Assembly (NCBI GenBank): GCA_028717685.1
Contig: JAQUNI010000001.1
Coordinates: 207,451 to 271,450 of the forward strand
DNA: 64,000 nucleotides
Direction of reading: 5' to 3'
Source: Patescibacteria group bacterium
Lineage (GTDB): Bacteria; Patescibacteriota; JAQUNI01
This document shows positions 575-50,388 of the stretch, in pieces; position 1 is the stretch's first letter; each line of letters begins with the position of its first letter. The notes beneath the pieces were generated by a model. The model was not told the origin of the DNA. It was given only the letters and a program-made list of their open reading frames with translations, and did not search any database. The position numbers and the translations under genes are program-made.

Positions 575-1273
575 GGGTTTCACCCGATTTTGGCTCAAAT
601 AAAGCTCTTTTTTCCTGATAGGGGGTTAAACCCCTCTTTGTCTCCCCTTGTCTGGGGAGATGTTTGGATTATCCATTATTCTAAGACTATCAATAATTCT
701 TTGCTTAGGCAGAGAAGCAAGAGCGGTGAAGATCAAACAGAGTTGAATAAAAATCATCTACGATCCTCGTTGGTCTTCACCGTTTGCGGATTCAGAAATC
801 TTGTCTTGGATCCCCATCCAAAGGGGAGGAATTTTCTGAACCTTCTAAATCCCACATCACAAAAATCTGAAATTTAGAAGATTGGTGAGCTGGTTTTGCC
901 TAGGTGTTTTCTAATCCCTAGAAAAGTTACTTTCCAAATCTTGTTGGAGCAAGAATTAATTTGAATGAACATATATATAAATTTTCCCTGCCCCAACTGG
1001 ACTTGAAAATAACTTTTTTGATATTTTGTTTGAAGTGGTATTATATCATAATCGCATATTTTTGTCAAGAGTATATTCTCTTTTATAACAAAAAATGGCT
1101 TAGATAAGCCGAATTTGAATCGTGAATAATGAATCAGGAATTAGGAATTAGAGAATTTTTAATTTAGATGTCTTAATTAAACCATTGATGATTTTGTGCA
1201 CTTTTATTGTTTGTTCGGCAATTTTTAAAAAGTCCTCCTTTACAATATATCGGACATCACGAGCGATAATCAA

Positions 1274-1531
1274 TTAATTCTGCAATTCAGTAACCGATCC
1301 CTGCGCTCTAGAATAAAAACAAATTTTATCTTTATAGGTCTGACGGCTGAAACCTTCGGCAATATTAGAAGTGATTGAAACTACACAACGACGCATTTGG
1401 CTCACTAAACCAAACATCTCTTCTTTGGGAAATTTTTTGGTAATTTCGTAAACCATTAAAACTAACTTGTGCCCTTCTTTCCAAGCATCTAAATCCGTGA
1501 ATGACTTAATTTTCTTTAATTCATTATTCAT
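1274..1531 (-). CDS. four-helix-bundle protein (23S rRNA intervening-sequence protein family, PF05635-like), C-terminally truncated copy (85 aa; last helix missing)
   Basis: Family motifs DLDAWKEGHKL...LVSQMRRCVVSITSNIAEGFSRQ; paralog of the intact 118-aa copy at 11162..11518; the N-terminus MNNELKKIK is encoded by the ATTC-heptad repeat arm; possible pseudogene. Confidence 0.6.
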   Translation of the reverse strand: MNNELKKIKSFTDLDAWKEGHKLVLMVYEITKKFPKEEMFGLVSQMRRCVVSITSNIAEGFSRQTYKDKICFYSRAQGSVTELQN

Positions 1532-1558
1532 AATTCATAATTCCTGATTCATGATTCC

Positions 1559-2737
1559 CTATTCTCCCCTCAACGCTTCCACGGGATCCATCCTGCTTGC
1601 CCGAAACGCAGGATAAAGACCGGACAATAGACCCACAAGCGTGGCAAAAACAATAATACTGCCTATAAGCCACCAAGGCAGAGCGAATAAATCAACTTGA
1701 GTTTGGACAATGTTTTGCGCGGCAATGTAATTATTGAGCAGAGAACTTAAAATTAAAGTAATGCCCCAGCCACAGAGCACGCCAAAAAAACCGCCGATAA
1801 AACCAATCGCGGAAGCTTCCAAACTGAAAATTTTTAAAATGTCCCGCCGCGACGCGCCGACCGCGCGCATCACCCCAATCTCACGAGTGCGCTCTAGGGT
1901 AGCCATAATCATCGTATTGATAATCCCGAGGGAAGCGACGCCCAAGATGATAATCCCCACGCTTCCGAGAGCAAGTTCTAAAATCCTGAAATATTTGGTC
2001 ACGCGGTCAACTAAATCATCTAAAGCGACTGCTTCCAGCCCCATCCCCTTAATTTCTTTGCTAATCCCCGCGACCTTTTGCACGGAATTTGCCTTCACCC
2101 GCAGACTATCATAAGTTACCATCTTTTTAATCTCGCTCGCCTGGGTCAAAGGGATAAAAACCCCATAGCCCAAGATATTCTCTCCCCGAGCCACGCCGAC
2201 AATTTTTAAAACTAAATTCTTTTGACCGAAGGTCAGATTTAAAGATTTACCTAAAAATCTCTCCGGGTAATCGCTGGAAAACTCTTTCAAAAAATTCTCT
2301 CCTATGACAGCGCTTTCCCCTGCCAAGCTTGAAGCGGGACTACCAGCGATCAATTTAAAAACATCCGTCGCCCCTGACGGCACGGCAGTAACTAAGGTCT
2401 TGCCTACGTTTTTTTCAAAACCGCTCAAGGATACCTCATCAGCCATCAAAGTAACCATCGGATCCACCCGCGCGACATCAGGCAGGCTTTCCAGCTTGCT
2501 GATTGTTTCGGAGTCCAGAAGCCGATTCCCATCCTCTTTTTGATAAACATTAATGTCCGTTAATTCTCCTGTGTCTTTCAGGCCTTTAACGACGATCTGC
2601 TGCAAACCCACGCCCAAAGAAACCATAGAGCTAATTAAAGTCGTGCCAATAAGAATCGCGAAGGTTGTTAAAACCGTGCGCAACTTGCGGCGGCGCAGAT
2701 TTTTAAAAGAAAATAATATTGCTGAAGAAAGCTTCAT
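1559..2737 (-). CDS. ABC transporter permease, FtsX/MacB-like
   Basis: N-terminal TM helix, large periplasmic loop, C-terminal FtsX-like 4-TM block; adjacent to the cognate ATPase. Confidence 0.8.
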   Translation of the reverse strand: MKLSSAILFSFKNLRRRKLRTVLTTFAILIGTTLISSMVSLGVGLQQIVVKGLKDTGELTDINVYQKEDGNRLLDSETISKLESLPDVARVDPMVTLMADEVSLSGFEKNVGKTLVTAVPSGATDVFKLIAGSPASSLAGESAVIGENFLKEFSSDYPERFLGKSLNLTFGQKNLVLKIVGVARGENILGYGVFIPLTQASEIKKMVTYDSLRVKANSVQKVAGISKEIKGMGLEAVALDDLVDRVTKYFRILELALGSVGIIILGVASLGIINTMIMATLERTREIGVMRAVGASRRDILKIFSLEASAIGFIGGFFGVLCGWGITLILSSLLNNYIAAQNIVQTQVDLFALPWWLIGSIIVFATLVGLLSGLYPAFRASRMDPVEALRGE

Positions 2738-2800
2738 AAAAATTTAAATCTTTTTAGATTTTAAATTGTAATTTTTCATTTTACACTTTGAATTTTACAT

Positions 2801-3463
2801 TTATACTATTCTCCCATCCTGCATCCTTAAAACCCGAGGCGCGATTCCCGCCGCTTCCGAATCATGGGTCACTAAAAGCACGGTGACGCCCAGGTGCTGA
2901 TTAATATAAGATAAAATCTCTAAAATCTGCTGGCTTGCCTGCGAATCCAGATTTCCTGTCGGCTCATCCGCCAAAATAATCTCTGGCCGCGTCACAAGCG
3001 CGCGCGCGATTGCTACCCGCTGGCGCTGACCTCCTGAAAGTTCACTGCCCTTATGTTCAAGCCGATCGCCTAACCCGAGCCAAGTGAGCAAGCTAGCAGC
3101 GATTTTATTTCTTTTCCTCTTGGGAACATTGGCGAATAATAAAGGCAAAGCGACATTTTCCACGGCGGTTTGCGAGGAGTCTAAATTAAACATCTGGAAG
3201 ATAAAGCCGATTTTTTGATTGCGGTAAACAGAAATAGCTTGGTCCGACAGACTAGTCAAGCAAAGCTGGTCTACAAAAATATCGCCCTGATTCGGACGAT
3301 CCAAACCGCCGATCACGTGCAAAAGAGTGGACTTTCCCGAACCTGAGGGACCCGTGATCGCCAAAAATTCACCTCGGCTGATATTCAAATTAATGCCATC
3401 CAAGGCAAAAATATTTTCTCCGCCCATCTTGTAGATTTTAGAAACATTCTGGAGGGAAATCAT
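2801..3463 (-). CDS. ABC transporter ATP-binding protein (MacB/LolD-like)
   Basis: Walker A GPSGSGKST, ABC signature LSGGQRQRVAIARAL, Walker B ILADEPTGNLD. Confidence 0.9.
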   Translation of the reverse strand: MISLQNVSKIYKMGGENIFALDGINLNISRGEFLAITGPSGSGKSTLLHVIGGLDRPNQGDIFVDQLCLTSLSDQAISVYRNQKIGFIFQMFNLDSSQTAVENVALPLLFANVPKRKRNKIAASLLTWLGLGDRLEHKGSELSGGQRQRVAIARALVTRPEIILADEPTGNLDSQASQQILEILSYINQHLGVTVLLVTHDSEAAGIAPRVLRMQDGRIV

Positions 3464-3583
3464 AACAAATTAAAAATTTAAAATGAAAAATGTAAAATTA
3501 TAACGCAAAATTTAAAATTCTTCAATTTCTTAATTTTGAATTTTGAATTGCAATTTTCAATTTTGAACTTTTAATTTTTAATT

Positions 3584-4174
3584 TTATATTCTTCCCCAAT
3601 CCAATTCCGCTGGTTTGTGGCTGCCGATTTTGTCCACTAATTTTAAATAATCACTCTTAAAAATTGTATCCACAAAACGGTCATGCATTTCCTGACGATA
3701 CAAAAATTCAGCGAGCGACACTACCGTATAATTTAACTCCTCGCCTAATCCCTCTTCTAATTTCCTCACGATACGCACGAGCGCTTTTTTATTGATCCTG
3801 CCCACAACAAACAAATCCACCGGCGAATCATCTAAACCGATGAATTTACCCGAGAGACAGGCAAACTTGATCCCCGCCAACTGCTCAATGTCCCGAGCCA
3901 ATTTACTCCCCTCCAATCCCGCCTTGAAAATCAGACGCTTTAATTCCGGATACAGTTTGAACTGATCGTTCGGGTAATAATACTTCTTGCCGTCTTCAAG
4001 ACGGCTCGTAAGAAGCCCTAATGTTTCCAGATTCGCCAGCTCAATCCGCACTGAGTTAATCTTTTCATCTAAACGGCGGGTTAATTCCCGCACATAATAA
4101 GATTGGGGCTTACCCGCCAGAAAAAGCGCCAACAGCTTCACCCTTACCTTGGAAGAAAATAATTGTTCCAGCAT
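3584..4174 (-). CDS. putative winged-helix (ArsR-like) transcriptional regulator with a C-terminal nucleotidyltransferase-like region
   Basis: N-terminal HTH-like segment KVRVKLLALFLAGKPQSYYVRELTRRL; C-terminal 'DLFVVG' nucleotidyltransferase-like motif; pattern recognition only. Confidence 0.4.
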   Translation of the reverse strand: MLEQLFSSKVRVKLLALFLAGKPQSYYVRELTRRLDEKINSVRIELANLETLGLLTSRLEDGKKYYYPNDQFKLYPELKRLIFKAGLEGSKLARDIEQLAGIKFACLSGKFIGLDDSPVDLFVVGRINKKALVRIVRKLEEGLGEELNYTVVSLAEFLYRQEMHDRFVDTIFKSDYLKLVDKIGSHKPAELDWGRI

Positions 4175-4478
4175 AGAGTTGCTTTGAACAAGTTAGTTGT
4201 TCATTTTTAATATAGCATAACAAAAATCAGAATGCAAAGCCGCCAATTCAAATTTGATATAGTTAGTCTAACCTGACATTAAATATAATAACCAACGGTT
4301 AAAGTTTTTGTAACTTGTAACCTATAACATATAACTCAAGGTCTTGTGTTACATGTCTGCCGCCAGGCAGGCAAGTTTCAAGTTATAAATTACAAAAATT
4401 AGAAATTTTCAATCCCTATCTCTTTGCATTTTTATCTCATAAATATTATAATATAAGTAAATACTTTGTGTATATCTT

Positions 4479-6788
4479 ATGTTCCAACGCTCAAGGTTAG
4501 AAATTCAAAACACCAAACTGCTAATTTCTAATCCTAAGGTGCGCGAAGGCTTGTGTAATGTTTTTATTTTTGAACCTGAAAGAGGGAAAGAAAACTTAGG
4601 AGAGCTTCTTATTCTTGTCAAAATTGAGGAAGACAACAGAGATAATCGGGAGATCGCCCAAGGAATCGTGGAAATTGTAAAAAATGAATTTTACCGCGAC
4701 GCGGAAAAAAATCCCGAAGAAAATTTAGAAGCTAGTTTGGTGAAAATTAATGAGATTCTGAAAGAGTTAGCCTCTTTAGGCAAAGTGGCTTGGGTGGGCA
4801 AGTTGGACGCAATCATCGCTTGTCTCCAAAACAAAAAGCTAATTTTAACCCAAACAGGAAAAGCCTTGTCTCTTTTGGTCCGCGATGGCGAGGCTAGTTT
4901 TATTACGGAAGGACGAGAAGAGGAAAAAGAAGGTCAACCCCTTAAAACTTTCAAGGGTTTAACCTTCGGTCTTTTGGAATCTAATGATCACCTTATTCTT
5001 TCCACTGCCACTTTATTTGATTTCTTCTCTCCGGCAAAACTCATCCAAATCCTCTGCCGCGGCACCTTAAAAGAAGCAAAAAATTATCTGGAAGAATTGC
5101 TCAAGGAGCAGATTGAGACGGAAATGGTGGGGACAATCCTTGTCTCCCTAAAACGAATCCAGTCTAAAAAATCTTTCAAACAAGAAGAAGGACAATTATC
5201 CGCTTTAGAAAAAATCGGCAGGCTTGAGGATTTCCCTGAAGCAGTGGAGATGGCAACAGAGGAAGCGGAAACTCAAACTGATTTCCTGCAAGCGGTGGAT
5301 AAAAGGCTGGAAGCAAAAAGAAGGGGTAAGTTTCCTTTTTCCCTCTTTCACACTCTCAAAAGCTCCCTCTTGATTTTAAAACAAGGAAGGCGATCTTTCT
5401 TTAAATATGCCATTAAAATACTCCAATCTCTATGGCGGTTCATCCTTTTTCCTCTCCTTCTTCTCCTTAAGAAAATATTTTCACTGTTTCCCGTCCTTTG
5501 GAAAAAACTCCTGCCCCTCTTCAGGAAAGTAAAGGGTTTCTTGGCGCGCAAAAAGATAAAAACTCCAAGCGTCACCCCCATTCAAACTAATCAGGGAATA
5601 ACCACCAAATTATCCTTTGTAAAATACATTCCGGGATTGATCAAACCGATTTCTCTCCGCCTGCAAGCTGTTCCTCTGCGAAGCAAAATAATTCTTTCCA
5701 GCCTGATCGTCGCGCTATTATTCCTTGCTTCCGGCATCATCTTCCTTAAAAAATATCATTCCCCAAAGCCCCAAGCCGCGCAAGGCGAGGAAACAATTCT
5801 CCAAGAGGCCGAGGGCAAAAGAAAAGCGGCGTTAGACGCGATGGTTTACAAAGACGAAAAGCAAGCAAGGGAACTTCTAGAAGAAGCGGACAGCCTTACG
5901 GGTCAAATTTTGGGTTCGTCCACGCATCGCGAAGAGGCAGAGAGTTTAAAAAACGCAATTGTAGAGCAATTTGACAAGATGGATAATATCACCCGCATCA
6001 CAGAACCAGCGCTTATATTTAATGTTGACCAAATTAACTCTGATTTCAATCCATTAGACTTAATTGGCTTGGAGAACGGTCTCTACGCTCTCTGCAACCC
6101 TAACAATATCATCCTCCGCCTTGACCCGCAAAAGAAAGAAGCAGTCCAACTCTCGCCCAGTTTTAATGATATAGGCTACCTCGTCCGCGCTTCCCAGATT
6201 GATCAAGGAAAAAATATCCTCTTTGTCAACGCCGATAACAAATTTTCCCTTTTTGATTTTAATTCCTTTAAAATTGAACCAATCAGCGCAGAATCCCCCT
6301 TAGAGCCCAACAATATTCAGGATTTAGCTGAATATTCCAACAAAATCTATACCCTCAATCCTAGTGAAAACCAAATCGTGAAATACACGCGCACGATTGG
6401 GGGCTTATCCAAAGGAAGCTTATGGCTTTCTGAAGGCGATATTAAAAATGGCGCTTCTTTAGCAATTGACGGCGATGCCTATGTCTTGACCCTTAATGGT
6501 GAAATCTTGAAATTTCGCGCGGGAAAACAAGTGAATTTCAATAAAGCCGCAATCCAGCCCGCTCTGGAAAAACCCACGAAAATTTTCACGCGATTAAATG
6601 ACAAAAATCTCTATCTTGTTGACCCCCCCACGCGGCGCATTATTGTTTTGGGAAAAAACACGAGCGAAGTGCTCCGCCAATTTACCTCGGACAAGTTTAA
6701 CGACCTTAAAGATATTTGGGTAGCACCGGATGAAAAAATAATTTATGTTCTGGCGGGCAAAAGCGTCTATCAGATAGAAAACAGGTGA
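4479..6788 (+). CDS. hypothetical large membrane protein (769 aa)
   Basis: Long ORF; internal hydrophobic segments (LFPLLLLLKKIFSLFPVLW; ILSSLIVALLFLASGIIFL); C-terminal repeat-like beta-rich region; no recognisable catalytic motif. Confidence 0.5.
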   Translation: MFQRSRLEIQNTKLLISNPKVREGLCNVFIFEPERGKENLGELLILVKIEEDNRDNREIAQGIVEIVKNEFYRDAEKNPEENLEASLVKINEILKELASLGKVAWVGKLDAIIACLQNKKLILTQTGKALSLLVRDGEASFITEGREEEKEGQPLKTFKGLTFGLLESNDHLILSTATLFDFFSPAKLIQILCRGTLKEAKNYLEELLKEQIETEMVGTILVSLKRIQSKKSFKQEEGQLSALEKIGRLEDFPEAVEMATEEAETQTDFLQAVDKRLEAKRRGKFPFSLFHTLKSSLLILKQGRRSFFKYAIKILQSLWRFILFPLLLLLKKIFSLFPVLWKKLLPLFRKVKGFLARKKIKTPSVTPIQTNQGITTKLSFVKYIPGLIKPISLRLQAVPLRSKIILSSLIVALLFLASGIIFLKKYHSPKPQAAQGEETILQEAEGKRKAALDAMVYKDEKQARELLEEADSLTGQILGSSTHREEAESLKNAIVEQFDKMDNITRITEPALIFNVDQINSDFNPLDLIGLENGLYALCNPNNIILRLDPQKKEAVQLSPSFNDIGYLVRASQIDQGKNILFVNADNKFSLFDFNSFKIEPISAESPLEPNNIQDLAEYSNKIYTLNPSENQIVKYTRTIGGLSKGSLWLSEGDIKNGASLAIDGDAYVLTLNGEILKFRAGKQVNFNKAAIQPALEKPTKIFTRLNDKNLYLVDPPTRRIIVLGKNTSEVLRQFTSDKFNDLKDIWVAPDEKIIYVLAGKSVYQIENR

Positions 6789-8698: not shown

Positions 8699-8702
8699 GG
8701 AT

Positions 8703-8950
8703 TTGGAATTATGAATTAGGAATAGTGAATCAGGAATAACGAATTAGGAAGAATAAAATAAAGCCTTTTCCCAAGGCTTTATTCAAATATAAAAAAGTGG
8801 ATTCTTGCCTACACGAGATTTACCAAGCGGCTCACACCGCCCTACTCGTGGTCTTGGGAAGCATATGTATTATACACTGGCAGAATAAACTGTCAACCTT
8901 AAGGGGATTAGGAATTATGAATATTTTTATATTCCTGATTCATGATTCCT
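8703..8950. repeat. heptad-repeat palindromic element (GAATNAG arms, ~150 nt GC-richer core), empty copy between mltG and rplJ
   Basis: Left arm gaattatgaattaggaatagtgaatcaggaataacgaattagg; right arm ggaattatgaat...attcctgattcatgattcctgattcatt; core includes hairpin aaagcctt/aaggcttt. Confidence 0.7.
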
Positions 8951-8957
8951 GATTCAT

Positions 8958-9971: not shown

Positions 9972-10024
9972 ATATTGGAATCAGGAATAATGAATTAGGA
10001 ATCAGGAATAGAAAATATTCATAA

Positions 10025-11104
10025 TCACAAATACTTCTTCTGCCCATTCTTCTCCAATGTCTCCACAATCTTTTTTACATCCTGCGACCGATCCTTGGGA
10101 CAGATTAACAAAATATCTTCCGTGTCAATAACCACCATATCGCGCATACCGATAGTAGCCACTAATTTTTTAGCGGGCGCATAAATTAAACTGCCGTCCG
10201 TATCCAAACCAACGTGATGGCACTTGATGTAATTCTCGGCTTGGCCGTGCGTCAAAATTTCCTTGACCGCCTGCCATTGCCCCACATCAGACCAGCCAAA
10301 TTCAGCGGGAATGGTTAAAATATTTTTGGTTTTTTCCACAATGCCATAGTCCACGGAGATGGGCTTAATCTTGCTGTACTCTTGGTTTAAAACTTTTTTT
10401 TCTTCCTTTGTGCCAATGGCTTTCTGAATCTTCCTTAATTTTTTATAAGTGTCGGGAAGATATTTTTCAAAAAGCGCGACCAAGGACTTCGCTTTCCAAA
10501 AAAACATCCCCGAATTCCATAAATATTGGCCTGAAGCGATATAGCGTTGGGCGGTTTTTAAATCCGGTTTTTCCACAAAACGTTTCACATAATAAACAGC
10601 GTCCTTGCCTCGCTTTTTTAAAAGACGGCTGCGTTCAATATAGCCATAGCCGGTTTCAGGATAAGCCGGATTCATGCCCAAAATCACCGTGTATTCCGGC
10701 CTCTCCGCAACAATCTGTTCAGCCAATTTTGCCACCCGGCGGTATTCATCTTCATCCAGAATATAATGGTCAGAGTAGACGCAAGACATCACTGCCTCCG
10801 GATCCCGTTTTTCCAAAATCATTGCCGCGAGGCCTAGAGCTGCCGCTGTATCTTTGCGTTCCGGCTCCAAAGAAAAATTGGAAAGCGAAAGAGAAGGAAG
10901 TTGTTTTCTAATATCCTTAAAATTTTTCCGCCCCGTGGTAATGAGGATATGTTTTTTATCCACGGCTTTGGCTAGACGGGTGAAAGTTTTTTGTAAAAGC
11001 GTGCGGTTGCCAATAATGGCTTGGGATTGTTTGGGTTTAGCCTTGCGGCTTACAGGCCAAAGGCGCGTCCCCGTTCCGCCCGCCATAATCACGGCGTAGA
11101 ACAT
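10025..11104 (-). CDS. mannose-1-phosphate guanylyltransferase-like sugar nucleotidyltransferase
   Basis: Nucleotidyltransferase G-loop AVIMAGGTGTRLWP; the track ORF extends to 11152, but Met17 (MFYAVIMAGG) is the likelier start. Confidence 0.75.
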   Translation of the reverse strand: MFYAVIMAGGTGTRLWPVSRKAKPKQSQAIIGNRTLLQKTFTRLAKAVDKKHILITTGRKNFKDIRKQLPSLSLSNFSLEPERKDTAAALGLAAMILEKRDPEAVMSCVYSDHYILDEDEYRRVAKLAEQIVAERPEYTVILGMNPAYPETGYGYIERSRLLKKRGKDAVYYVKRFVEKPDLKTAQRYIASGQYLWNSGMFFWKAKSLVALFEKYLPDTYKKLRKIQKAIGTKEEKKVLNQEYSKIKPISVDYGIVEKTKNILTIPAEFGWSDVGQWQAVKEILTHGQAENYIKCHHVGLDTDGSLIYAPAKKLVATIGMRDMVVIDTEDILLICPKDRSQDVKKIVETLEKNGQKKYL

Positions 11105-11585
11105 AGAAATAAAGTTAAAAGGTAAAGTGCAAAGTGCAAAACTAAAGCGCAAAGTTCAAAATTATTTCCTTCCCTTAAGAGTTAGTAAGCTTGCTCCGAG
11201 TATTTTTGCTAGTTCCTCTACTTCTTTTAGAAGTAAACTAATTTCTTCCTTTGGGAATTTAGTCGCATCTCTTAGTAAACCTAACCAATACTTTGTTTCG
11301 TTTGCTGACTTTAAGGCAATTTCATAAAATCTAGTAAAATCCCTTTTAGAACTCGCAGCCTGGGCTTCTATAATGTTTGCTCCTACTGAAGTAGCTGATC
11401 TCAAAAGTTGATCTGCAATTATCCGAAAAATATTTTGGCTAGGTAATTTACTAACAAATTTAATAATCTGAATTGAAAAATAATATGCACGATATTTAAG
11501 TTGTTGTTTAACTTCCATAACTTTTACGCTTTAAGCTGTGGTTTTGCCTTTTGCACTTTGCCTTTTGCACTTTTACTAATGGCAC
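11105..11585. mobile_element. heptad-palindromic element carrying a four-helix-bundle protein gene (inverted GCAAAGT/ACTTTGC repeat arms flank the cargo ORF)
   Basis: Left arm aaggtaaagtgcaaagtgcaaaactaaagcgcaaagttcaaaa; right arm gccttttgcactttgccttttgcactttt; inserted between manC-like and pcm, overlapping the pcm stop by 11 nt. Confidence 0.5.
11162..11518 (-). CDS. four-helix-bundle protein (23S rRNA intervening-sequence protein family), intact 118-aa copy
   Basis: Family motifs ...LLRSATSVGANIIEAQAASSKRDFTRFYEIALKSANETKYWLGLL... Confidence 0.8.
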   Translation of the reverse strand: MEVKQQLKYRAYYFSIQIIKFVSKLPSQNIFRIIADQLLRSATSVGANIIEAQAASSKRDFTRFYEIALKSANETKYWLGLLRDATKFPKEEISLLLKEVEELAKILGASLLTLKGRK

Positions 11586-12203
11586 AAACGAAAACCCTGG
11601 CTCTTCGGTAATTTCAAAATCATCTTCACTTATCTTTTCCAATCGCGTCATTGTGCAAGCATAAGGCGAGCCCACGGGAATGACCATCACCCCGCCCACT
11701 TTTAACTGCGCTTTTAAAGCTTTAGGAATATTGACGGCCGCCGCCGCCACAATAATGCGGCCATAAGGTGCCGCTACCGGATGCCCCTTCCAACCATCGC
11801 CTAAAATAAATTGAACATTGCGGAGACCTAATGCTTTGACATTTTTCTCGCCAAACTCTTTTAATTCCGGAATTACTTCTAGGGCGTAAACTTTCCCTTT
11901 GGCGCCAACAATATGCGCGAGCAGCCCTGTCTGCCAGCCAGAGCCTGAACCCACATCCAAAATCTTATCTCCCCTTTTCGGAGCGAGCATCTCCAGCATA
12001 ATCGCGACGGTCAAGGGCTGGGAAATCGTCTGACCAAAACCAATGGGCAAAGGGGCGTTAATTTCCGACTGTTCGCGCAGATCCTCTGCGCTTCTACCCT
12101 CCCTGGGGATAAAACGAAAGCGAGGCACTCTTCTAAATGCCTCAATGATCCGCGGTGTGCGCAAATGCCCTTGACTGATTAGGGTCTCAATTAGAGCGGA
12201 CAT
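11508..12203 (-). CDS. pcm: protein-L-isoaspartate O-methyltransferase
   Basis: SAM-binding motif ILDVGSGSGWQT; PIMT signature TISQPLTVAIMLE. Confidence 0.9.
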   Translation of the reverse strand: MSALIETLISQGHLRTPRIIEAFRRVPRFRFIPREGRSAEDLREQSEINAPLPIGFGQTISQPLTVAIMLEMLAPKRGDKILDVGSGSGWQTGLLAHIVGAKGKVYALEVIPELKEFGEKNVKALGLRNVQFILGDGWKGHPVAAPYGRIIVAAAAVNIPKALKAQLKVGGVMVIPVGSPYACTMTRLEKISEDDFEITEEPGFSFVPLVKVQKAKCKRQNHSLKRKSYGS

Positions 12204-14925: not shown

Positions 14926-15092
14926 TTTAAAGAAACTGTGAACAACTTAAAACAAAAAACGCCTTTAAATAAACAAGAGAGTGTTTTAATAAAGCGAAAG
15001 GCGAAAAGTGTAAAACGTAAAACCGCAACTTAAAGCTCAAAGCTTTACACTTTGCGCTTTGCACTTTGCGCTTTCATCTGTGGATAACTTTT

Positions 15093-22297: not shown

Positions 22298-22371
22298 TGG
22301 CAGGGGTGGAGGGAATCGGACCCCCGACTACGGTTTTGGAGACCGTCGTTATACCACTTAACTACACCCCC
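22298..22371 (-). tRNA. tRNA-Trp (anticodon CCA), 3' CCA encoded
   Basis: Manual cloverleaf: acceptor GGGGGTG/CACCCCT, anticodon loop CTCCAAA, T-loop TCCGATT, 3' end GCCA. Confidence 0.75.
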
Positions 22372-22380
22372 GAAAATAAA

Positions 22381-22494
22381 ATTTCTAATTTTCAATTTCT
22401 AATTTCTATTAAATTTTCAATGAATCAATTTTTAGGCAGTTTAAAAATTAAGAAATTAGAAATTTAATAAAAATTAAGAAATAAAAATTAAAAA
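22381..22494. repeat. heptad-repeat palindromic element (TTTCTAAT / GAAATTA arms) between tRNA-Trp and rpmG
   Basis: atttctaattttcaatttctaatttctattaaattttcaatg ... aaattagaaatttaataaaaattaagaaataaaaattaaaaatta. Confidence 0.6.
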
Positions 22495-22656
22495 TTATTT
22501 CTTTACTTCTTTATGCAAGATGTGCTTGCGGCAATGGCGGCAGTATTTTTTTAATTCCAGTTTTTTCGCCTGCGGATCCTTCTTGTTGCGGCGGGTGAAA
22601 TAATTGATATTCTTGCACGCCGTGCATTGCAGGCGAACTAAAGTTTTTTGGGGCAT
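22495..22656 (-). CDS. rpmG: 50S ribosomal protein L33
   Basis: Not in the ORF track (53 aa); translation [53 protein letters not shown] with the L33 Cys4 zinc ribbon; the conserved rpmG/tRNA-Trp neighbourhood is present. Confidence 0.85.
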
Positions 22657-22695
22657 AGAAATAAGTTAAAAGATAAAAGTGAAAAGTCATTTTTG

Positions 22696-22767
22696 AGCCC
22701 ACGAGCGGATTTGAACCGCTGACCTACTCCTTACCATGGAGTTGCTCTACCACTGAGCTACATGGGC
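22696..22767 (-). tRNA. tRNA-Thr (anticodon GGU)
   Basis: Manual cloverleaf: acceptor GCCCATG/CGTGGGC (one G-U pair), D-arm GCTC..GAGC, anticodon stem ACTCC/GGAGT, loop ATGGTAA, T-arm AGCGG-TTCAAAT-CCGCT. Confidence 0.75.
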
Positions 22768-22864
22768 TAAAAAGGAATCATATATTATGAATCAGGAATT
22801 ATGAATGGGGAAAATTATGAATAAAAAAAATAATTCATTATTCCCGATTCCCTATTCCTTATTC

Positions 22865-22947
22865 CATGATTGTGGGGAGAGCAGGATTTGAACCTGCGTA
22901 GCCCGAAGGCGCGAGTTTTACAGACTCGAGCAATTGACCACTCTGCC
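22865..22947 (-). tRNA. tRNA-Tyr (anticodon GUA), long variable arm
   Basis: Acceptor GGGGAGA/TCTCCCC, anticodon loop CTGTAAA, long variable arm, T-loop TTCAAAT. Confidence 0.75.
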
Positions 22948-23092
22948 ATCTCCCCGTCTTCAAGTTAAAAGTCCAGAGTTCAAAATTCAAAGTTGAATCC
23001 AAAGTTCAAAGTTAAATTCCTGAGATTTTAAATTTTTAACTGTAACTTTTAACTTTGCACTTTGAACTTTTAACTATTTTTGAGCCGAGGAG

Positions 23093-23164
23093 AGGATTCG
23101 AACCCCCAACCTTGGCTTTACAAAAGCCCTGCTCTACCTTTGAGCTACCTCGGCAAAAGGGAAT
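23093..23164 (-). tRNA. tRNA-Thr (anticodon UGU)
   Basis: Acceptor GCCGAGG/CCTCGGC, D-arm GCTC-AAAGGTA-GAGC, anticodon loop TTTGTAA, T-loop TTCGAAT. Confidence 0.75.
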
Positions 23165-27061: not shown

Positions 27062-27062
27062 A

Positions 27063-27123
27063 TATTTGTTTTGACCCCGTTAGAAACATGCCCCGCCCCG
27101 TTAGAAAAAATTTTCTAACGGGG
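27063..27123. repeat. 'CCCCGTTAGAAA' palindrome (12-bp perfect arms) with a partial extra half-site, between rpmE and prfA
   Basis: gaccccgttagaaacatgccccgccccgttagaaaaaattttctaacggggttgac; same arm sequence recurs at 32404, 36153-36232 and 51957. Confidence 0.7.
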
Positions 27124-27234
27124 TTGACTAAATTGAGCTGTAAATAGCAGGGGCGGACCAGTGTGTCCGCCCGGTTTCGGGTTAACAGGAGATTGCGGGT
27201 TGACACATGGGTCAATCCCTACAATTTTATCTTT

Positions 27235-28287
27235 ATGAAAGGAAAAATTAAAAAAATTCAAAAGGAATATGAAATGATTTTGAGCGCGCTCTCCGAGCCT
27301 GCTGCTATTTCTGATCCCGCGAAACGAACTTCCCTTAACAAAAGAAGCGCTAGGCTTCAGACCATACTTGCGGAGCATGAAAATTACAAAAAAATTCAGA
27401 AAGAAATTAGAGAAACTGAAACCTTGCTTGTTGATCCCGAACTCAAAAAGGAAGCGGAGCAAGAATTGCAGAATTTAAAGAGTAAAGAGACGCAGATCAG
27501 GCAGAGTTTAGAGGAAAAATTAAATCCCCCAAATCCCAATGACGTCAAAGATATAATTATGGAAATCCGCGCTGGCGCTGGCGGCGATGAAGCCGGACTT
27601 TTCGCCGCCGATCTTTTTCGGATGTATTCACGTTATACTGAACAACGCGGATGGGAGGTAAATCTTCTTAATTCCAGCCGCACGGGCATTGGCGGCTTTA
27701 AAGAGATTATCTTTGAGGTGAACGGCAGCGATGTTTTCAGCCACTTAAAATACGAAAGCGGAGTGCATCGCGTCCAACGCATACCGGAAACCGAAAAGTC
27801 GGGGCGCATCCATACCTCCACGGCTTCCGTCGCGGTTCTGCCTCAAGCCGAGGAAGTGGAAATCAAAATCAAACCGGAAAATTTACGCGTTGACGTTTAC
27901 CGTTCTTCCGGACCCGGCGGCCAAAGCGTAAACACCACCGATTCTGCTGTCCGCATCACCTATCTTCCCACCGGATTAGTTGTTTCCTGCCAAGACCAAA
28001 AATCACAACTTAAAAACAAAGAAAAAGCGCTTCAGGTTCTCCGCTCTCGCTTGCTCGTTCAAAGACAAGAAGAAGGAGAAAAAGCGCAAGGCAAGGCAAG
28101 GCGCGCTCAAATTGGCGGGGCTAAGCGCGCTGAAAAAATTCGCACCTATAATTTTCCCCAAGACCGCATCACGGATCACCGGATCAAGAAAAGCTGGCAC
28201 GGCATAGAAAGGATTATGAACGGAGAAATAGACGATATTATTCAAACAATTAAGAATAATCTTGGACAGAACAACAGCAAAAGTTAA
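27235..28287 (+). CDS. prfA: peptide chain release factor 1
   Basis: GGQ motif SGPGGQSVNTTDSAVRITYLPTG; tripeptide motif PET in RVQRIPETEKSGRIHTS (RF1 carries a PxT motif at this position, RF2 carries SPF); the track ORF starts at 27163, but Met25 (MKGKIKKIQ) fits RF1 length. Confidence 0.85.
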   Translation: MKGKIKKIQKEYEMILSALSEPAAISDPAKRTSLNKRSARLQTILAEHENYKKIQKEIRETETLLVDPELKKEAEQELQNLKSKETQIRQSLEEKLNPPNPNDVKDIIMEIRAGAGGDEAGLFAADLFRMYSRYTEQRGWEVNLLNSSRTGIGGFKEIIFEVNGSDVFSHLKYESGVHRVQRIPETEKSGRIHTSTASVAVLPQAEEVEIKIKPENLRVDVYRSSGPGGQSVNTTDSAVRITYLPTGLVVSCQDQKSQLKNKEKALQVLRSRLLVQRQEEGEKAQGKARRAQIGGAKRAEKIRTYNFPQDRITDHRIKKSWHGIERIMNGEIDDIIQTIKNNLGQNNSKS

Positions 28288-28289
28288 AA

Positions 28290-28385
28290 GTTCAAAATTC
28301 AAAGTTGAGTTTCAAATTAAAAGCTTTAAGATTATTAACTTTAAATTTTTAATTCAACTTTTCACTTTGCACTTTGAACCTTTAA
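28290..28385. repeat. heptad-repeat palindromic element (AAAGTTC / ACTTTGC arms) between prfA and prmC
   Basis: aaagttcaaaattcaaagttgagtttcaaatt ... caacttttcactttgcactttgaacctttaact; near-duplicate of 22962..23090. Confidence 0.6.
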
Positions 28386-28395
28386 CTAGAACAAT

Positions 28396-29265
28396 TTGAT
28401 AAAAATTGCCTATATTTTGTCCCAAGCTACCGCAAAACTTAGAAAGAGACTGATTCCCTCCGCCCCTTTAGAAGCGGAGATTTTATTATCTTCTGTTCTA
28501 AGGAAAAAACGAGAATACCTGCTTGCGCGCCCAGGGGACGCCATAATTTTAAGCCAAAGCCAAAAATACCAAGCCTTAATCTCGCGCCGCGTTAAAGGTG
28601 AACCCGCGGCTTATCTCACACATCACAAAGAATTTTACGGTCTGGATTTTTATGTTAACAAAAATACTCTCATCCCGCGGCCGGAATCAGAACTAATCAT
28701 TGAGGAGGTCAAAAAAATTACAGCATCCTGCGCAAAACCAATTATTATTGATGTAGGCACGGGATCGGGGTGTCTCGCAATTACCTTGGCGCACAGCATA
28801 CCGCGAGCTACTGTATACGCCACTGACCTTTCGCCAAAAGCGCTCTCTGTCGCCCGAAGAAACGCCCGCTTACACAAGGTAACAATCAAATTCCTGCAAG
28901 GCGATCTTATTTCGCCCTTGCCATCTTGCGTTTGGCAGCTACCTAGCAAAAAAATTATTATTGCCAATCTCCCCTATCTTTCAGAAAAATACCGCGAAGA
29001 TATCCGCGACACGAGCTTAAAATATGAACCCAAAGCAGCTCTTTGGGGCGGCAAAGACGGTTTAAAATATTATCGGCAATTATTTCAACAAATCCAAACA
29101 AGAATCAGGAATCAGGAATCAGGAATCAGGATATTTGCGGAAATCAACCCTGAACAAGTGAATAAAATAGAAAGAATAATCAGAAAATATTTTGTCCATA
29201 CAGATATAAAAATCAAAAAAGACCTTGCTGGTCTTGATAGAGTTGTCGTTATAAAAATAAACTAA
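28396..29265 (+). CDS. prmC: release factor glutamine N5-methyltransferase (PrmC/HemK)
   Basis: SAM motif IIIDVGTGSGCLAI; NPPY-type motif NLPY; contains an in-frame GAATCAG x4 tandem-repeat insertion (RIRNQESGIRIF) at 29100-29131. Confidence 0.85.
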   Translation: MIKIAYILSQATAKLRKRLIPSAPLEAEILLSSVLRKKREYLLARPGDAIILSQSQKYQALISRRVKGEPAAYLTHHKEFYGLDFYVNKNTLIPRPESELIIEEVKKITASCAKPIIIDVGTGSGCLAITLAHSIPRATVYATDLSPKALSVARRNARLHKVTIKFLQGDLISPLPSCVWQLPSKKIIIANLPYLSEKYREDIRDTSLKYEPKAALWGGKDGLKYYRQLFQQIQTRIRNQESGIRIFAEINPEQVNKIERIIRKYFVHTDIKIKKDLAGLDRVVVIKIN

Positions 29266-29276
29266 TGGTGCCCTAA

Positions 29277-29452
29277 GTTATTTATTTTGTCATTGCGAGG
29301 AGGGCTTATAGTCAGATCCCTCGCTTCCGCTCGGGACAGGCTCCGTAATCTCATCGAGCTATATTTATACAGATCTAGGAGATTGCTTCGGGCTCCGCCT
29401 AGGGCGGATCCCTCGCAATGACGGTATATTTCGTAATTCAAGGTAGGCTACG
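29277..29452. mobile_element. MITE-like GC-rich element with ~40 nt terminal inverted repeat (ACCTTGAATTACGAAAT...TGTCATTGCGAGGAGGG), copy A
   Basis: Right end ccctcgcaatgacggtatatttcgtaattcaaggtagg; internal ggagattgcttcg and gctcgatgagattacggagcctgtcccgagcggaagcgaggg shared with the copies at 34232 and 50212; no ORF. Confidence 0.6.
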
Positions 29453-29454
29453 AA

Positions 29455-32396: not shown

Positions 32397-32403
32397 ATTT
32401 GTA

Positions 32404-32436
32404 AACCCTGTTAGAAATTTATTTCTAACAGGATGA
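32404..32436. repeat. 'CCTGTTAGAAAT' palindrome immediately upstream of the rplY start
   Basis: ccctgttagaaatttatttctaacagg. Confidence 0.6.
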
Positions 32437-32625
32437 ACTTTCTCAAATATCCCTTTAAAAGTCTGCCTTTTAAAGGGAATATAAGCTCAATTTAATAATA
32501 AGACGAAATTCCTCTGTAACTCAAGTTGCGTATTTTAGCGAGGGAAAATAAAATCCCTTTAAAATCTGCATTTGCGGTAGACAAACCTGCCCGCTAGCCT
32601 AGCGGCAGCTTAGACAGGCGGGTTC

Positions 32626-34223: not shown

Positions 34224-34231
34224 AAAAACCT

Positions 34232-34440
34232 TGAATTATGAAATGCGTCGTCTATTAGCGAGAGATCCGCCCTAGGCGGAGACCAAAGCCCGCCCGCCTC
34301 GCCTGAAGCGAAGCGATGGCGGGCAGGCAATCTCCTAAATCTGTATGAATAACAGCTCGATGAGATTACGGAGCCTGTCCCGAGCGGAAGCGAGGGATCT
34401 GACTATAAGCCCTCCTCACTAATAGGCAAAATGAATTCCG
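34232..34440. mobile_element. MITE-like GC-rich element, copy B (opposite orientation to copy A)
   Basis: Contains gctcgatgagattacggagcctgtcccgagcggaagcgagggatctgactataagccctcctc (revcomp of copy A's internal segment) and TIR-like ends aaccttgaattatgaaatg... / ...gaattccgcgattcaaggt. Confidence 0.55.
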
Positions 34441-34510
34441 CGATTCAAGGTAAAAAGCGGAAGGTTTAAAATCCCAAACCCAAAATCACGATTTTTAAAC
34501 TTTAAAGTAT

Positions 34511-36155: not shown

Positions 36156-36232
36156 ACCCTGTTAGAAATTTATTTCAAATGGAGCTAACGGTTTTCGCTG
36201 ACCCCGTTAGATAAGTAAACATCTAACGGGGT
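36153..36232. repeat. 'CCCCGTTAGA' palindromes (two copies) immediately upstream of dnaE
   Basis: ccctgttagaaatttatttc...gagctaacgg and ccccgttagataagtaaacatctaacgggg. Confidence 0.6.
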
Positions 36233-36254
36233 AAATAAAATAACACGCAGTTTT

Positions 36255-39200
36255 ATGTTCACCCACCTTCATACCCACTCCCACTATAGCCTTTTGGATG
36301 GTTTAATTAAAATTGATGATCTCGTGCAGATGGCTTCAAAAAACGGAATGAAAGCCCTTGCCTTAACCGACCATGGCGTAATGTATGGCGTGATTGAGTT
36401 TTACGAGAAAGCGCTAAGTGTAGGCCTAAAACCTTTAATTGGCGTTGAGGCTTATCTTGCTAATAATGGGATGACGGACAAGCGGCCCAATATTGATAAT
36501 AAGCAGTATCATTTAGTTTTAATCGCTAAAAACCAACAAGGCTATCAAAATTTAATTAAACTTACCACCCACGCGCATCTTGAAGGCTTCTATTACAAGC
36601 CGCGGATTGACCGCGAACTCTTAAAAAAACACAAGGGAGGTCTCATCGCTCTTTCCGCCTGTTTAAAAGGGGAAATCCCTAACGCGATTATGAATGGTGA
36701 CTTCAAGAAGGCTGAAGAGAGTGCTCTTTTTTATCAAAACACCTTTGGCGCAGGCAACTTCTATCTTGAACTCCAACATCACCCCAACATTCCCGAACAA
36801 GCCAAAGTCAACGCAGAGCTCGTTAAAATTTCCAAAAAGCATAACATCCCTCTGGTTGCCACAAACGATATTCATTATTTGGAAAAAACTGATGCCGAGG
36901 CTCAGGAAATTCTCCTCTGTCTGCAAAGTAAAAAAACCCTTCTTGACCAAAATCGTCCTCTTTCCATGATCGGCGACGACTTTTCTTTCACTCCTCCTAA
37001 ATTAATGGAGGAATATTTTCGCGACATTCCTGAGGCTCTAGAAAATACAGCTAAAGTAGCGAAGATGTGCAATCTCAATATCGCCTTAGGTCAAACCAAA
37101 CTCCCCCATTATCAAGTCCCATCCGGCACTAATCCAATTTCTTATCTTAGAAAACTTTGCCTGTCTGGTTTGCAAAAACGCTACCAAACGAATTATCAAA
37201 AGGCGCCACGCACAATTATAGAACGTTTAAACTACGAATTCTCCGTCATTGAAAAAACCGGCTTTGCCACTTATTTCTTAATTGTCCAAGATTTCGTGAA
37301 TTGGGCCAAGAACCATAATATTATTGTTGGTCCTGGACGGGGTTCGGCCGCCGGCTCCCTGGTTTCTTATCTTCTGAACATTACCGATATTGATCCGATC
37401 GCCCATGAACTATTGTTTGAACGCTTCTTAAATCCAGAAAGAATCTCTATGCCGGATATTGATTTGGACTTCGCGGATACCAGACGCGATGAAGTAATCG
37501 ATTATGTGCGCCAAAAATACGGCCAGGACCATGTAGCCCAAATTATCACTTTCGGAACAATGGCGGCGCGAGCAGCGATACGCGATGTGGGAAGGGTTTT
37601 TAGCTATCCTTACAGTTTTTGCGATCAAATCGCTAAAATGATCCCAATGTTCTTTTCGCTAGAACGAGCTCTCTCCACCGTCCCAGAATTAAAAACCGCT
37701 TACAAGCAAGACGAAAAAGTGAAGAAATTAATTGATACCGCAAAAAAATTAGAGGGAGTAGCGAGGCACGCTTCTACGCATGCCTGCGGCATCTTAATTA
37801 CTAAAGATCCCATTGATGAGGTCGCCCCTCGCCAGTATGCCTCCGCTTCTGATCAGACTATTGTGAGCCAATATGAGATGCACGCGATTGAATCCACGGG
37901 TCTTCTAAAGATGGATTTTCTGGGCTTGAAAAATCTGACTATTCTGGAAAACACCCTGAAAATCATTGAAAAAATCCGCAACGAAAATGTTGAACTTAAA
38001 AAAATCCCGATGGATGATCTCCGAACCTTTAAGCTGCTTGCCCAAGGTAAAACCACTGGCGTCTTTCAATTAGAGTCTTCAGGAATGAAACGATATTTGA
38101 AAGAGCTCCAACCCACGACGTTTGAAGATATAATAGCAATGGTTTCTCTCTATCGTCCTGGTCCCATGGAATGGATTCCCGATTATATCGCGGGAAAAAA
38201 AGGAAAGAAAAAAATTACTTATCTGCATCCTAAACTCAAACCGATTCTGGAAAAAACCTATGGCGTGGCCGTCTATCAAGAACAAGTTTTGCAAATCGCC
38301 CGAGATCTCGCTGGTTTTTCCTTGGGAGAAGCCGACATCTTGCGCAAAGCGGTAGGTAAAAAAATCCCAAAGCTGCTCGCCGAACAAAAAGAAAAATTTG
38401 TTCAAGGCTGCAAGCAAAATGGACTCTCACAAGACCTCGCGGAAAAAATCTTTTCATTTATTGAGCCTTTCGCAGGTTATGGTTTTAACCGCGCGCACGC
38501 AGCTTGTTATGCCCTCATCGGTTATCAAACCGCTTATTTAAAGACTCATTATCCTGCCGAGTTTATAGCCGCTCTATTAACCTCGGATCAGAGTAATACT
38601 GATCGGATCGCTATCGAAGTTGATGAATGTTCAAGCTTAGGAATTAAGGTCCTGCCGCCGGACATTAATGAGAGCTTCGCTAATTTTACCGTCGTCCAAC
38701 AAAAAGACAAAAAAGAAGTGATCCGTTTCGGACTTTCCGCTATTAAAAATGTGGGGGCTAACATCGTCGCCGAAATAATCAAGGAAAGAAAACAAAACGG
38801 CCCTTATCAAAATCTTGATGATTTTATTAAGAGAGTGCAGGATAAGGATTTAAATAAAAAATCGTTAGAAAGTCTTTCAAAATGCGGGGCGCTGGACAAA
38901 TTCGGCGAACGCAACCAAATACTTGCCAATACTGACAAGATTCTGCATTATGCCCGCGAGTATCGCCGCGTCAACGCCATTGGACAACGCGACTTGTTTG
39001 GAAATCTTTCTACCACCCAAGCGAATTTCTCCAGATTGCGCCTAGGAGAAGTCGCTACTGCTTCCAAGGAAGAAAAGCTAACATGGGAAAAAGATCTCTT
39101 GGGTCTCTACATCTCCCATCATCCCCTTGATGATTATCGCGAATACCTCGCTTATAAAACGACACCCATTCACGCTTTGAATCCTCTCCAGAAGAATGAT

Positions 39201-50109: not shown

Positions 50110-50211
50110 TGTTAATTTTAACAGAAAATGAGCTGAAAGGCAAAATAAAAAACTGGCCAAGTTGACCAGCTTAAGATGGAGATATTATTTTTATCCCCTC
50201 AATTATTGATA

Positions 50212-50362: not shown

Positions 50363-50388
50363 CAAGGTATAATAATATCTTTAAATAT

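Follow-up and report, generated by a model that had tools for sequence, protein, structure and literature searches.

Four-helix-bundle genes between inverted heptad arrays as a probable intervening-sequence-type cassette outside rRNA

A 64,000-nt stretch of DNA from a Patescibacteria group bacterium (contig JAQUNI010000001.1, positions 207,451–271,450; hereafter, the window) contains two genes for four-helix-bundle (4HB) proteins, each enclosed by inverted arrays of tandem heptads. The intact unit occupies 11105–11576 on the minus strand, between pcm and a manC-like gene, and its twin occupies 1111–1573, also on the minus strand. The gene together with its inverted heptad arms is a widespread, little-studied cassette of many phyla, not a local oddity. 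We favour, with some reserve, the reading that the 11105–11576 unit is an intervening sequence (IVS)-type cassette residing outside rRNA, with a decayed twin at 1111–1573, and that the arms probably form a stem of the RNase III type. We call the element IVS-like rather than an IVS because it is located in the pcm–manC spacer and not in a 23S rRNA helix.

The intact 4HB gene (11162–11518, minus strand) encodes a 118-aa protein of subfamily 1, which is recognized by the PF05635 (86.5 bits; cut-off 33.8) and TIGR02436 (96.6 bits; cut-off 24) profiles. Its closest solved structures, 2RLD (E = 2e-22) and 2GSC, were each deposited with five chains. PF05635-type proteins share the conserved motif GxxRxxxSxxxNxxE (PMC3936711); in subfamily 1, Gln37, Arg40, Ser44, Asn48, and Glu51 are invariant, preserving the spacing of the motif with Gln in place of its first Gly. 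No defence family in PADLOC matches the protein. The unit of approximately 470 nt lies in the operon spacer in the order pcm, cassette, manC, in the same sense as the host genes. Its upstream arm (11521–11576) consists of eight heptads, which read in the gene sense GTAAAAG, TGCAAAA, GGCAAAG, TGCAAAA, GGCAAAA, CCACAGC, TTAAAGC, and GTAAAAG, contain the signature AAAACCACAGC at 11535–11545, and stop 2 nt short of the ATG of the 4HB gene. The downstream arm (11105–11161) abuts the manC start codon and reads in the gene sense TTTTGAA, CTTTGCG, CTTTAGT, TTTGCAC, TTTGCAC, TTTACCT, TTTAACT, and TTATTTCT. Alignment of 11117–11161 with 11522–11566 gives inverted arms of 45 nt that are 78% complementary, with a period of 7 nt. 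In the minimum free energy fold of the full 501-nt intact element the arms are paired with each other, and when the open reading frame (ORF) is replaced by a short linker the element folds at -43.1 kcal/mol (z = -4.8), with none of 200 shuffles folding as well.

The host genes delimit the cassette. The upstream gene, pcm, encodes a protein-L-isoaspartate O-methyltransferase in a 231-aa ORF (11508–12203, minus strand), of which PF01135 covers residues 2–212. Among the homologues listed, lengths range from 191 to 323 aa, nearly all being 202–226 aa, and they align to at most 94% of the 231-aa ORF, mostly 91% and in one case 76%. The conserved portion finishes near 11577 (...FVPL). Since the homologues end approximately 19 codons earlier, the last 19 pcm codons are read as read-through of the upstream arm; the end of this ORF overlaps the 4HB start by 11 nt, as the first-pass annotation of the window had noted. 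Downstream lies the manC-like gene for mannose-1-phosphate guanylyltransferase (10025–11104, minus strand; PF00483 and PF22640), whose N-terminus, aligned with relatives, places the start at the ATG at 11104 (MFYAVIMAGGTG) and not at 11152. No promoter-like site was detected on the minus strand near the intact 4HB gene. Rfam searches at gathering and E-value thresholds found no rRNA in the window, and no family matched the arms or the element.

The second element has the same construction. Its 4HB gene, of subfamily 2, is a 127-codon frame (1148–1531, minus strand) established from translation, profile matches, and relatives, and it is interrupted by a single in-frame TAA at 1274–1276, a codon at which the relatives (125–129 aa) have Gln. 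The 85-aa ORF at 1274–1531 (minus strand) scores 95.8 bits with PF05635 (cut-off 33.8) and 83.9 bits with TIGR02436 (cut-off 24), and a subfamily-2 profile matches both halves of the longer frame (E = 3e-54 and 1.6e-13). The second 4HB gene is thus a recent pseudogene, full length but for one nonsense codon, and not the truncated copy that it had been taken for. The invariant motif residues of subfamily 2 are Gln45, Arg48, Ser52, Asn56, and Glu59, Gln again replacing the first Gly. The upstream arm (1516–1573), a period-7 array of GAATNAT-type heptads, overlaps with its outer part the end of an FtsX-like gene (1559–2737), while its inner part constitutes the 4HB N-terminus. The downstream arm (1111–1150), which reads GAATCGT, GAATAAT, GAATCAG, GAATTAG, and GAATTAG on the plus strand, begins at the true stop codon of the frame. 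Accordingly, both the first codons (MNNE) and the last codons of the frame are encoded by the arms; the former had been recognized in the first-pass annotation, as had the bracketing of both 4HB genes by inverted heptad arms. Here the arms at 1117–1150 and 1531–1564 extend over 34 nt with 88% complementarity and a period of 7 nt, and with a linker in place of the ORF the element folds at -34.3 kcal/mol (z about -4.9; 0 of 200 shuffles as good).

The spread of this architecture was assessed with a flank score, which compares the upstream flank of a gene with the reverse complement of its downstream flank at a threshold of 30 or above. Each scan comprised the best 80 loci, with taxa as labelled in the records of metagenome-assembled genomes (MAGs). 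For subfamily 1, one genome per species was used, and the 80 loci share 54–75% identity; they come from Patescibacteria, Dehalococcoidia, Planctomycetota, Verrucomicrobia, Omnitrophota, Atribacterota, WOR-3, Aminicenantes, and one Methanophagales (archaeal) MAG. Among the 78 testable loci, 69 reach the threshold, and control positions in the same loci never exceed 29. The subfamily-2 scan, conducted on metagenomes, gave 66 of 73 testable loci at or above 30, with a median of 37; the controls have a median of 16 and reach 23 at the 95th percentile. Arms equally frequent beside any gene would have spoken against a cassette, and a gene-level control gave a different result: the threshold of 30 is reached by 55 of 76 4HB genes but by only 14 of 311 other ORFs, a 16-fold lower frequency, and at least four of those 14 ORFs are additional 4HB paralogues. 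Arms from the same locus match better than arms from different loci (median 38 versus 28, p = 6e-15), which indicates that the two arms of a locus co-evolve beyond the family consensus. In a search of IMG/VR viral contigs no subfamily-1 relative was found, leaving phage carriage unsupported.

Each heptad combines a conserved 4-nt core with three variable nucleotides, and the core differs between subfamilies. In subfamily 1, the heptad is C-A-A-A followed by A (less often G or T), C (less often T), and T (less often G), so that CAAA recurs every 7 nt as (CAAANNN)n; these arms persist even in Verrucomicrobia genomes of 58–59% GC. On either side of the ORF, a deviant GC-rich heptad, CCACARC, often stands at a distance of two or three units, and in many relatives the innermost heptads encode the first ~10 codons. 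Subfamily-2 arms are (GAATNNN)n or (GTATNNN)n, and their innermost heptads, which are mutual reverse complements, encode the N-terminus MNNES and the C-terminus IIHNS. A count of five heptads per arm, matching a pentamer, was considered and rejected, as the mode is four in subfamily 1 and the range elsewhere is 3–16. Two individual loci from these scans are of separate interest. One Patescibacteria contig (L030, 2459–4938) carries three 4HB genes of different subfamilies within 2.5 kb, each with complementary flanks, and in another locus (L016, 387–974) the inverted repeat around a signal-peptidase-I-like gene is stronger than at any other locus (score 104).

The same arrangement occurs on plasmids of cultured bacteria. 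A tblastn search against plasmids returned matches mainly in Nostoc, Calothrix, Anabaena, and Planktothrix, and heptad arrays lie beside the 4HB gene in 11 of the 12 loci read, a small sample. Inverted arrays were found in Nostoc punctiforme (GTCGGAR, score 58), Dolichospermum (GTAATTC, four perfect copies, score 66), Planktothrix (CGTAAAT, score 55), Calothrix (GGGTGTA, score 59), Riemerella (AAGGTTC, score 44), Treponema (CGGAGAG, score 33), Stanieria (score 33), and Picosynechococcus (GGAGATA, score 29). The Pseudanabaena plasmid has 16 copies of CTAAAAG upstream and 10 of CCAAAAG downstream, in direct orientation, and Nostoc 7120 has different heptads on the two sides, not in an inverted arrangement. 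In 10 of the 11 non-rRNA plasmid loci the 4HB gene is co-directional with its neighbours, including positions between cas10/cmr2 and cmr3 in Picosynechococcus (L179), between cas6 and cas4 in Pseudanabaena (L180), and between the DISARM gene drmD and a gene for an MmeI-type enzyme in Planktothrix (L174). The twelfth locus, from Azospirillum lipoferum, is a classical IVS: the 23S rRNA gene (Rfam LSU match 1292–4490) contains the 4HB ORF (about 2480–2845), and the stem is made up of CAGAGGA, CGGATGA, CAGAGGA, and CGGAGGA heptads paired with an inverted copy (score 47).

The unit behaves as a discrete heritable cassette, with mobility shown on an evolutionary scale only. Of 74 subfamily-1 loci, 64 have the 4HB gene in the same direction as both of its neighbours and one has it opposed to both, and the median gaps to the neighbours are 45 nt on the upstream and 66 nt on the downstream side. 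Copies sharing 85–92% DNA identity occur in unrelated contexts, including two pairs within single MAGs, and their homology extends from the outer end of one arm to that of the other. A target-site duplication, which the first-pass annotation had proposed to look for, is visible neither at three copy pairs with unrelated flanks nor at the pcm–manC junction, and divergence at these sites is high enough to hide a short one. No conserved target motif was seen at the copies with unrelated flanks. The 4HB protein evolves under purifying selection, with ratios of nonsynonymous to synonymous substitution (dN/dS) of 0.05–0.27 in 12 pairs.

A comparison of insertion sites, also proposed in the first-pass annotation, yielded both occupied and empty forms of the pcm–manC junction. 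Arms and 4HB gene are present together in the relatives L081–L084 and L088, and no relative has the gene at this junction without arms. In L085 and L087, manC follows pcm directly, with spacers of 64 and 50 nt. Because the tree of pcm and manC groups these two empty genomes together, one gain or one loss suffices. Identity among the junction relatives is 69–73% for the 4HB protein and 74–86% for the host genes. By these sequence comparisons, the pcm–manC element is old and vertically inherited and not recently inserted. The original impression that the intact copy is an insertion is therefore borne out by the pcm tail reading into the arm and by the occupied and empty junctions, but not in the sense of a recent event. 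Separately, L081 and L082 have an identical pcm protein and the same pcm–4HB–manC block and diverge downstream of manC, one contig continuing with Sua5, SHMT, and a Y1 transposase gene (L081) and the other with yceG, rplJ, and rplL (L082); this pattern suggests that the region was rearranged or that the assembly is chimeric at a repeat.

Hairpins without an ORF share the architecture of the arms, including the deviant CCACAGC heptad, and in locus L009 both arms of such a hairpin bear the signature, as far from the loop as in loaded elements. Within the window, ORF-less CAAAG-type hairpins lie at 15005–15072 (signature deviant heptad AAAACCGCAAC; fold -24 kcal/mol, z = -2.5), in the tRNA-Thr/tRNA-Tyr spacer at 22963–23075, and in the prfA/prmC spacer at 28279–28387, and a GAATNAG-type hairpin lies between two tRNA genes at 22775–22867 (-26 kcal/mol, z = -3.0). 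The transition from gene to hairpin can be followed at one site. In the yceG–rplJ spacer of L082, whose host proteins share 85% identity with those of the window, GAATNAG arms surround a remnant of a 4HB N-terminus, MNQEAGIRNQGKIKSFTDLKVWQK, which matches the subfamily-2 profile at E = 0.009. In the alignment, the window has at this position the short ORF-less GAATNAG hairpin 8905–8957 and a gap of 122 nt. A 4HB element is thus caught decaying to an ORF-less heptad hairpin in one orthologous comparison. The remnant site and the nonsense codon of the second window gene together give the series intact gene, pseudogene, remnant, hairpin. Close relatives at 85% protein identity differ in what their spacers contain, and a six-frame profile search of the window detected no further 4HB remnants in other hairpins.

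Arms also occur singly. One GAATNAG array lies just upstream of the rplJ start (8699–8757), a position kept in L082, and another lies in the manC/yceG spacer (9977–10015), where relatives have another heptad element or none. Solo arms are found in frame inside a MiaB-like and a PrmC-like gene. In the MiaB-like radical-SAM gene (43733–45115), a CAAA-type arm at 44306–44359 (plus strand) with the signature AAAACTACAAC is translated as SKLKCQNSNAKTTTQNSK in the loop after the NVNSY motif. In the PrmC/HemK-like gene (28396–29265), a perfect array of 4.3 GAATCAG units at 29102–29131 encodes RIRNQESGIRI. Similarly, the dnaE ORF (36255–39761) finishes within a GTAATCA array (39741–39782) that supplies its C-terminal codons, as in pcm. 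Of three sites that the first-pass annotation had listed as empty copies of the palindromic elements, 22775–22865 is indeed a simple ORF-less hairpin, 9972–10024 is a single array, and 8703–8950 is a composite of an array, a terminator-like hairpin, a conserved rplJ leader, a sigma-70 promoter, and the short hairpin at 8905–8957. The promoter is perfect (TTGACA, 16 nt, TATAAT; 8896–8869, minus strand), and the region 8756–8896 before rplJ (minus strand) comprises a leader conserved with L082 and then the terminator-like hairpin (8784–8756), with no match to the L10 leader of Rfam.

Period-7 arrays are a general feature of the window. At the strict threshold there are 13, nearly all intergenic, against 0–1 for every other period from 4 to 12, and in related loci the over-representation of period 7 is 2.5 versus 0.08 per 10 kb. 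The core families in the window are CAAAG, GAATNAG, AATTTTC, TTGTAAC, and GTAATCA, and most spacers contain a heptad palindrome, including those of the tRNA cluster and both sides of rplK. The cluster at 22298–23154 contains tRNA-Thr, tRNA-Tyr, tRNA-Thr, a putative rpmG-like short ORF, and tRNA-Trp, each spacer being a heptad hairpin and three core families being represented; rplK, located between nusG and rplA, is flanked by two identical 129-nt AATTTTC-type hairpins (54552–54680 and 55113–55243). Complementary flanks within the window are found at both 4HB genes and at 4 of 63 other ORFs, an association that is enriched and not exclusive. These four genes, encoding YceG, rplK, an ABC ATPase, and pheT, score at least 35 and are bracketed because adjoining complete hairpins share one heptad family. 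Profile searches found no transposase, integrase, reverse transcriptase, or RNase III among the 65 window ORFs. The first-pass annotation regarded the units as a mobile element with autonomous and MITE-like forms (miniature inverted-repeat transposable elements); the discrete unit and its ORF-less relatives agree with that description, while the term autonomous is unproven, given that no transposase, integrase, or reverse transcriptase was found in the window and no target-site duplication was seen.

Two other repeat families were observed beside the heptad arrays. GC-rich palindromes of the form CCCGCCYGCCATCGC...GCGATGGCGGGCAGG, with related units containing GATCCCTCGC or GCGAGGGATC, lie in the window at 34224–34510, 60480–60615, 29266–29454, 50161–50388, and 63213–63474, and in L082 at 4182–4451. 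One L082 palindrome sits in the loop of CAAA-type arms, so the cargo between arms need not be a 4HB gene. Recurrent hairpins of the form CCCCGTTAGAAAT...ATTTCTAACGGGG are located at 27062–27162, 32397–32440, 36156–36254, and 51950–51990, one of them inside the loop of an AATTTTC hairpin.

A role of the arms at the RNA level, which the first-pass annotation did not consider, is pointed to by the closest precedent, the 23S IVS with its stem, heptamers, and RNase III excision (PMC4990558). By analogy, the cassette would be transcribed by read-through from the host operon, and its arms would pair in the operon transcript as a long imperfect stem, looping out the ORF. Such a stem would bring the host cistrons together and place the 4HB start and stop codons at its inner end, the apex. 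As in the Coxiella IVS, the stem is a candidate RNase III substrate, through which the cassette may be cut from the host message with little harm. The 7-nt periodicity would permit pairing in several registers, and slippage in one arm would thus leave the stem intact. Recombination between similar arms and a trans-acting factor are both candidates for generating new copies.

Several observations weigh against this proposal. Arm pairing is imperfect, at about 70–85%, and the whole intact element folds no better than its shuffles (z = -1.5); only the arms do. Mismatches compatible with G·U pairing are not in excess (169 sense versus 195 antisense), and with no such bias this strand test does not separate an RNA-level from a DNA-level constraint. 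In a Dehalococcoidia group of close relatives with little variation, one compensatory pair was found among 34, so that covariation does not demonstrate RNA pairing, and the arms have diverged about as fast as third codon positions, with no clear signal of constraint. The flanking arrays are direct in Pseudanabaena and differ between the two sides in Nostoc 7120. Many heptad hairpins in the window have no 4HB partner, and the families AATTTTC, TTGTAAC, and GTAATCA have none there. Neither a target-site duplication at the compared copy pairs nor a recombinase among the window ORFs was found. A Shine–Dalgarno comparison with other genes (9% versus 21%) carries no weight either way, as the start calls for those genes are crude.

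Some of these points would suit a DNA-level process, in which the heptad arrays are recognized by their hairpin or cruciform shape in single-stranded DNA and mobilized in trans by a transposase of the HUH/Y1 class, either IS200-like or a tyrosine transposase associated with repetitive extragenic palindromic (REP) sequences (RAYT), or are spread passively by arm recombination or gene conversion, with the 4HB gene as cargo. The elements are palindromic, mostly intergenic, and in many copies devoid of an ORF; spacer content varies among relatives at 85% protein identity, and identical 129-nt hairpins flank rplK. The solo arms in frame within genes, the Y1_Tnp gene on the related contig L081, and the absence of a G·U bias fit as well. 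Nevertheless, we consider this explanation unlikely, since none of the 65 window ORFs is a transposase and neither a target-site duplication nor a conserved target motif was seen. A mechanism confined to DNA does not predict the 64:1 bias for the sense orientation in operons, the protein, which accompanies the arms, is subject to purifying selection, and the very diverse heptad cores fit poorly with one sequence-specific enzyme. A further possibility is that the arms are binding sites. A pentameric 4HB ring could read 4-nt cores spaced 7 nt apart in RNA or DNA, in the manner of TRAP, repressing its own translation, since the array covers the start codon, and acting in trans on processing or termination at ORF-less arrays. 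The core is specific to the subfamily (CAAA in subfamily 1, GAAT or GTAT in subfamily 2) and differs again in other taxa, the conserved part of the heptad is just 4 nt while the other three vary, the upstream array overlaps the start codon, and dN/dS is low. The solved relatives have five chains, and the homologue Avd binds reverse transcriptase and RNA in diversity-generating retroelements (PMC10053308). Yet the 3–16 heptads per arm show no fixed five-site stoichiometry, core class tracks protein similarity weakly within subfamily 2 (65.5% versus 64.0% identity), and GAATNAG arrays are abundant in the window even though its GAATNAG-type 4HB gene is a pseudogene. On balance, such a binding function appears improbable as the explanation of the arrays.

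The presence of hairpins in most window spacers, including those between tRNA and ribosomal-protein genes, and the bracketing of four other window genes by complementary arrays raise the question of whether the hairpins are ordinary terminators or processing sites of the host, among which the 4HB genes lie by chance. The cross-phylum data contradict this explanation and make it very improbable. The arms accompany the gene into genomes otherwise poor in heptad arrays, among them the Verrucomicrobia of 58–59% GC, they encode the ends of the ORF, and the homology of paralogous copies stops where they stop. Moreover, bracketing is 16 times rarer at other genes, and the same architecture recurs inside a 23S rRNA gene. 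A broader proposal is that 4HB genes with inverted heptad arrays constitute one large cross-phylum class of transposase-free selfish cassettes, in which the 4HB pentamer recognizes the array as a maintenance or mobility factor, the rRNA IVSs are members that landed in rRNA, and the heptanucleotide excess, as in the short tandemly repeated repetitive (STRR) sequences of cyanobacteria, the GGGAATC pairs of Xanthomonas, and the spacer hairpins of Patescibacteria, is largely gene-less debris; we offer it as a speculation and regard it as rather doubtful in this full form.

The S23p/4HB proteins are among the commonest unassigned protein families of bacteria, and the origin of rRNA IVSs (since about 1990), the excess of heptanucleotides in bacteria, and the function of STRR sequences have been open questions for decades. 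The occurrence of the same unit in rRNA, in operons, and on cyanobacterial plasmids, together with its decay to hairpins, ties these questions together. Since culturable cyanobacteria carry the unit on plasmids, the questions become testable in tractable organisms such as Nostoc and Anabaena. Furthermore, a 4HB gene located within a defence operon (cas, DISARM, or another) may have hitch-hiked there without being a system component, and in genomes of this kind arm sequences can modify the ends of genes and the loops of proteins. Already known were the family of the protein, the architecture of the IVS, and the presence of heptamers in that of Coxiella. As far as the searchable literature shows, the new elements are the unit of an ORF between inverted heptad arrays as a family-wide feature, mostly outside rRNA and in operons of many phyla, the subfamily-specific heptad flavours, and the decay to heptad hairpins known as unexplained repeats (PMC4692102, PMC4679880). 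Beyond the note on the Coxiella IVS, no link between heptamers and 4HB genes outside rRNA was found in that literature, which includes few subscription journals, so that this absence is weak evidence.

IVSs of 23S rRNA that encode an S23p/4HB ORF occur in Leptospira, Coxiella burnetii, Brucella, and Xanthomonas. In the Coxiella IVS, three or four GACAGAT heptamers precede the S23p start codon, with a copy number that varies between strains; RNase III cuts were mapped to its 28-bp stem, with cleavage at the first heptameric repeat, and an older proposal regards the IVS as a mobile element whose ORF serves mobility (PMC4990558). The units described here share with the 23S IVS the protein family, the terminal inverted repeats whose pairing gives a stem around the ORF, the tandem heptamers just before the start codon (in Coxiella, in the window element, and in the Azospirillum stem), the existence of ORF-less versions, and a patchy distribution for which horizontal transfer is suspected. 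In contrast, the window element lies between protein-coding operon genes and alters the end of the upstream ORF, and purifying selection acts on proteins of the window type, while the ORF of Coxiella is in decay.

The 4HB fold is homologous to that of Avd from diversity-generating retroelements, and weak matches to PF22296 (bAvd) and NF033474 were obtained. The NF033474 scores of 16.5 and 20.4 bits, however, compare with a cut-off of 80, and neither a reverse transcriptase domain among the window ORFs nor a template or variable repeat nearby was found. MITEs and the REP/bacterial interspersed mosaic elements resemble the present system in that short, mostly intergenic palindromes outnumber the ORF-bearing form, an origin by internal deletion being supported at one site. 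They differ in that no transposase or RAYT was found in the 64-kb window and no target-site duplication was seen, and in that the arms are degenerate heptad arrays of many families instead of a fixed terminal sequence. The sole ORF of the full-length element is the 4HB protein, which matches no transposase family, and to our knowledge its fold is not that of a known recombinase.

Heptanucleotide repeats have been described as inverted GGGAATC pairs in Xanthomonas and as GGGGATT in Nostoc (PMC4692102), and as TAACTGA in Beggiatoaceae (PMC4679880). The simple sequence repeats and STRR sequences of heterocystous cyanobacteria are likewise intergenic tandem heptamers, often in convergent inverted pairs, with copy numbers that vary between relatives. 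Those two reports draw no link to 4HB genes, whereas heptamer arrays flank 4HB genes on the plasmids of Nostoc, Calothrix, Dolichospermum, and Planktothrix. Finally, 23S_rRNA_IVP genes designated as cas-associated present the same picture of a 4HB gene wedged between cas genes, for example cmr2 and cmr3, and this position was read as a functional association with CRISPR-Cas (PMC3936711). Judging from the heptad arrays on their flanks and the many kinds of host operon, the 4HB genes of cas operons seem instead to be inserted cassettes.

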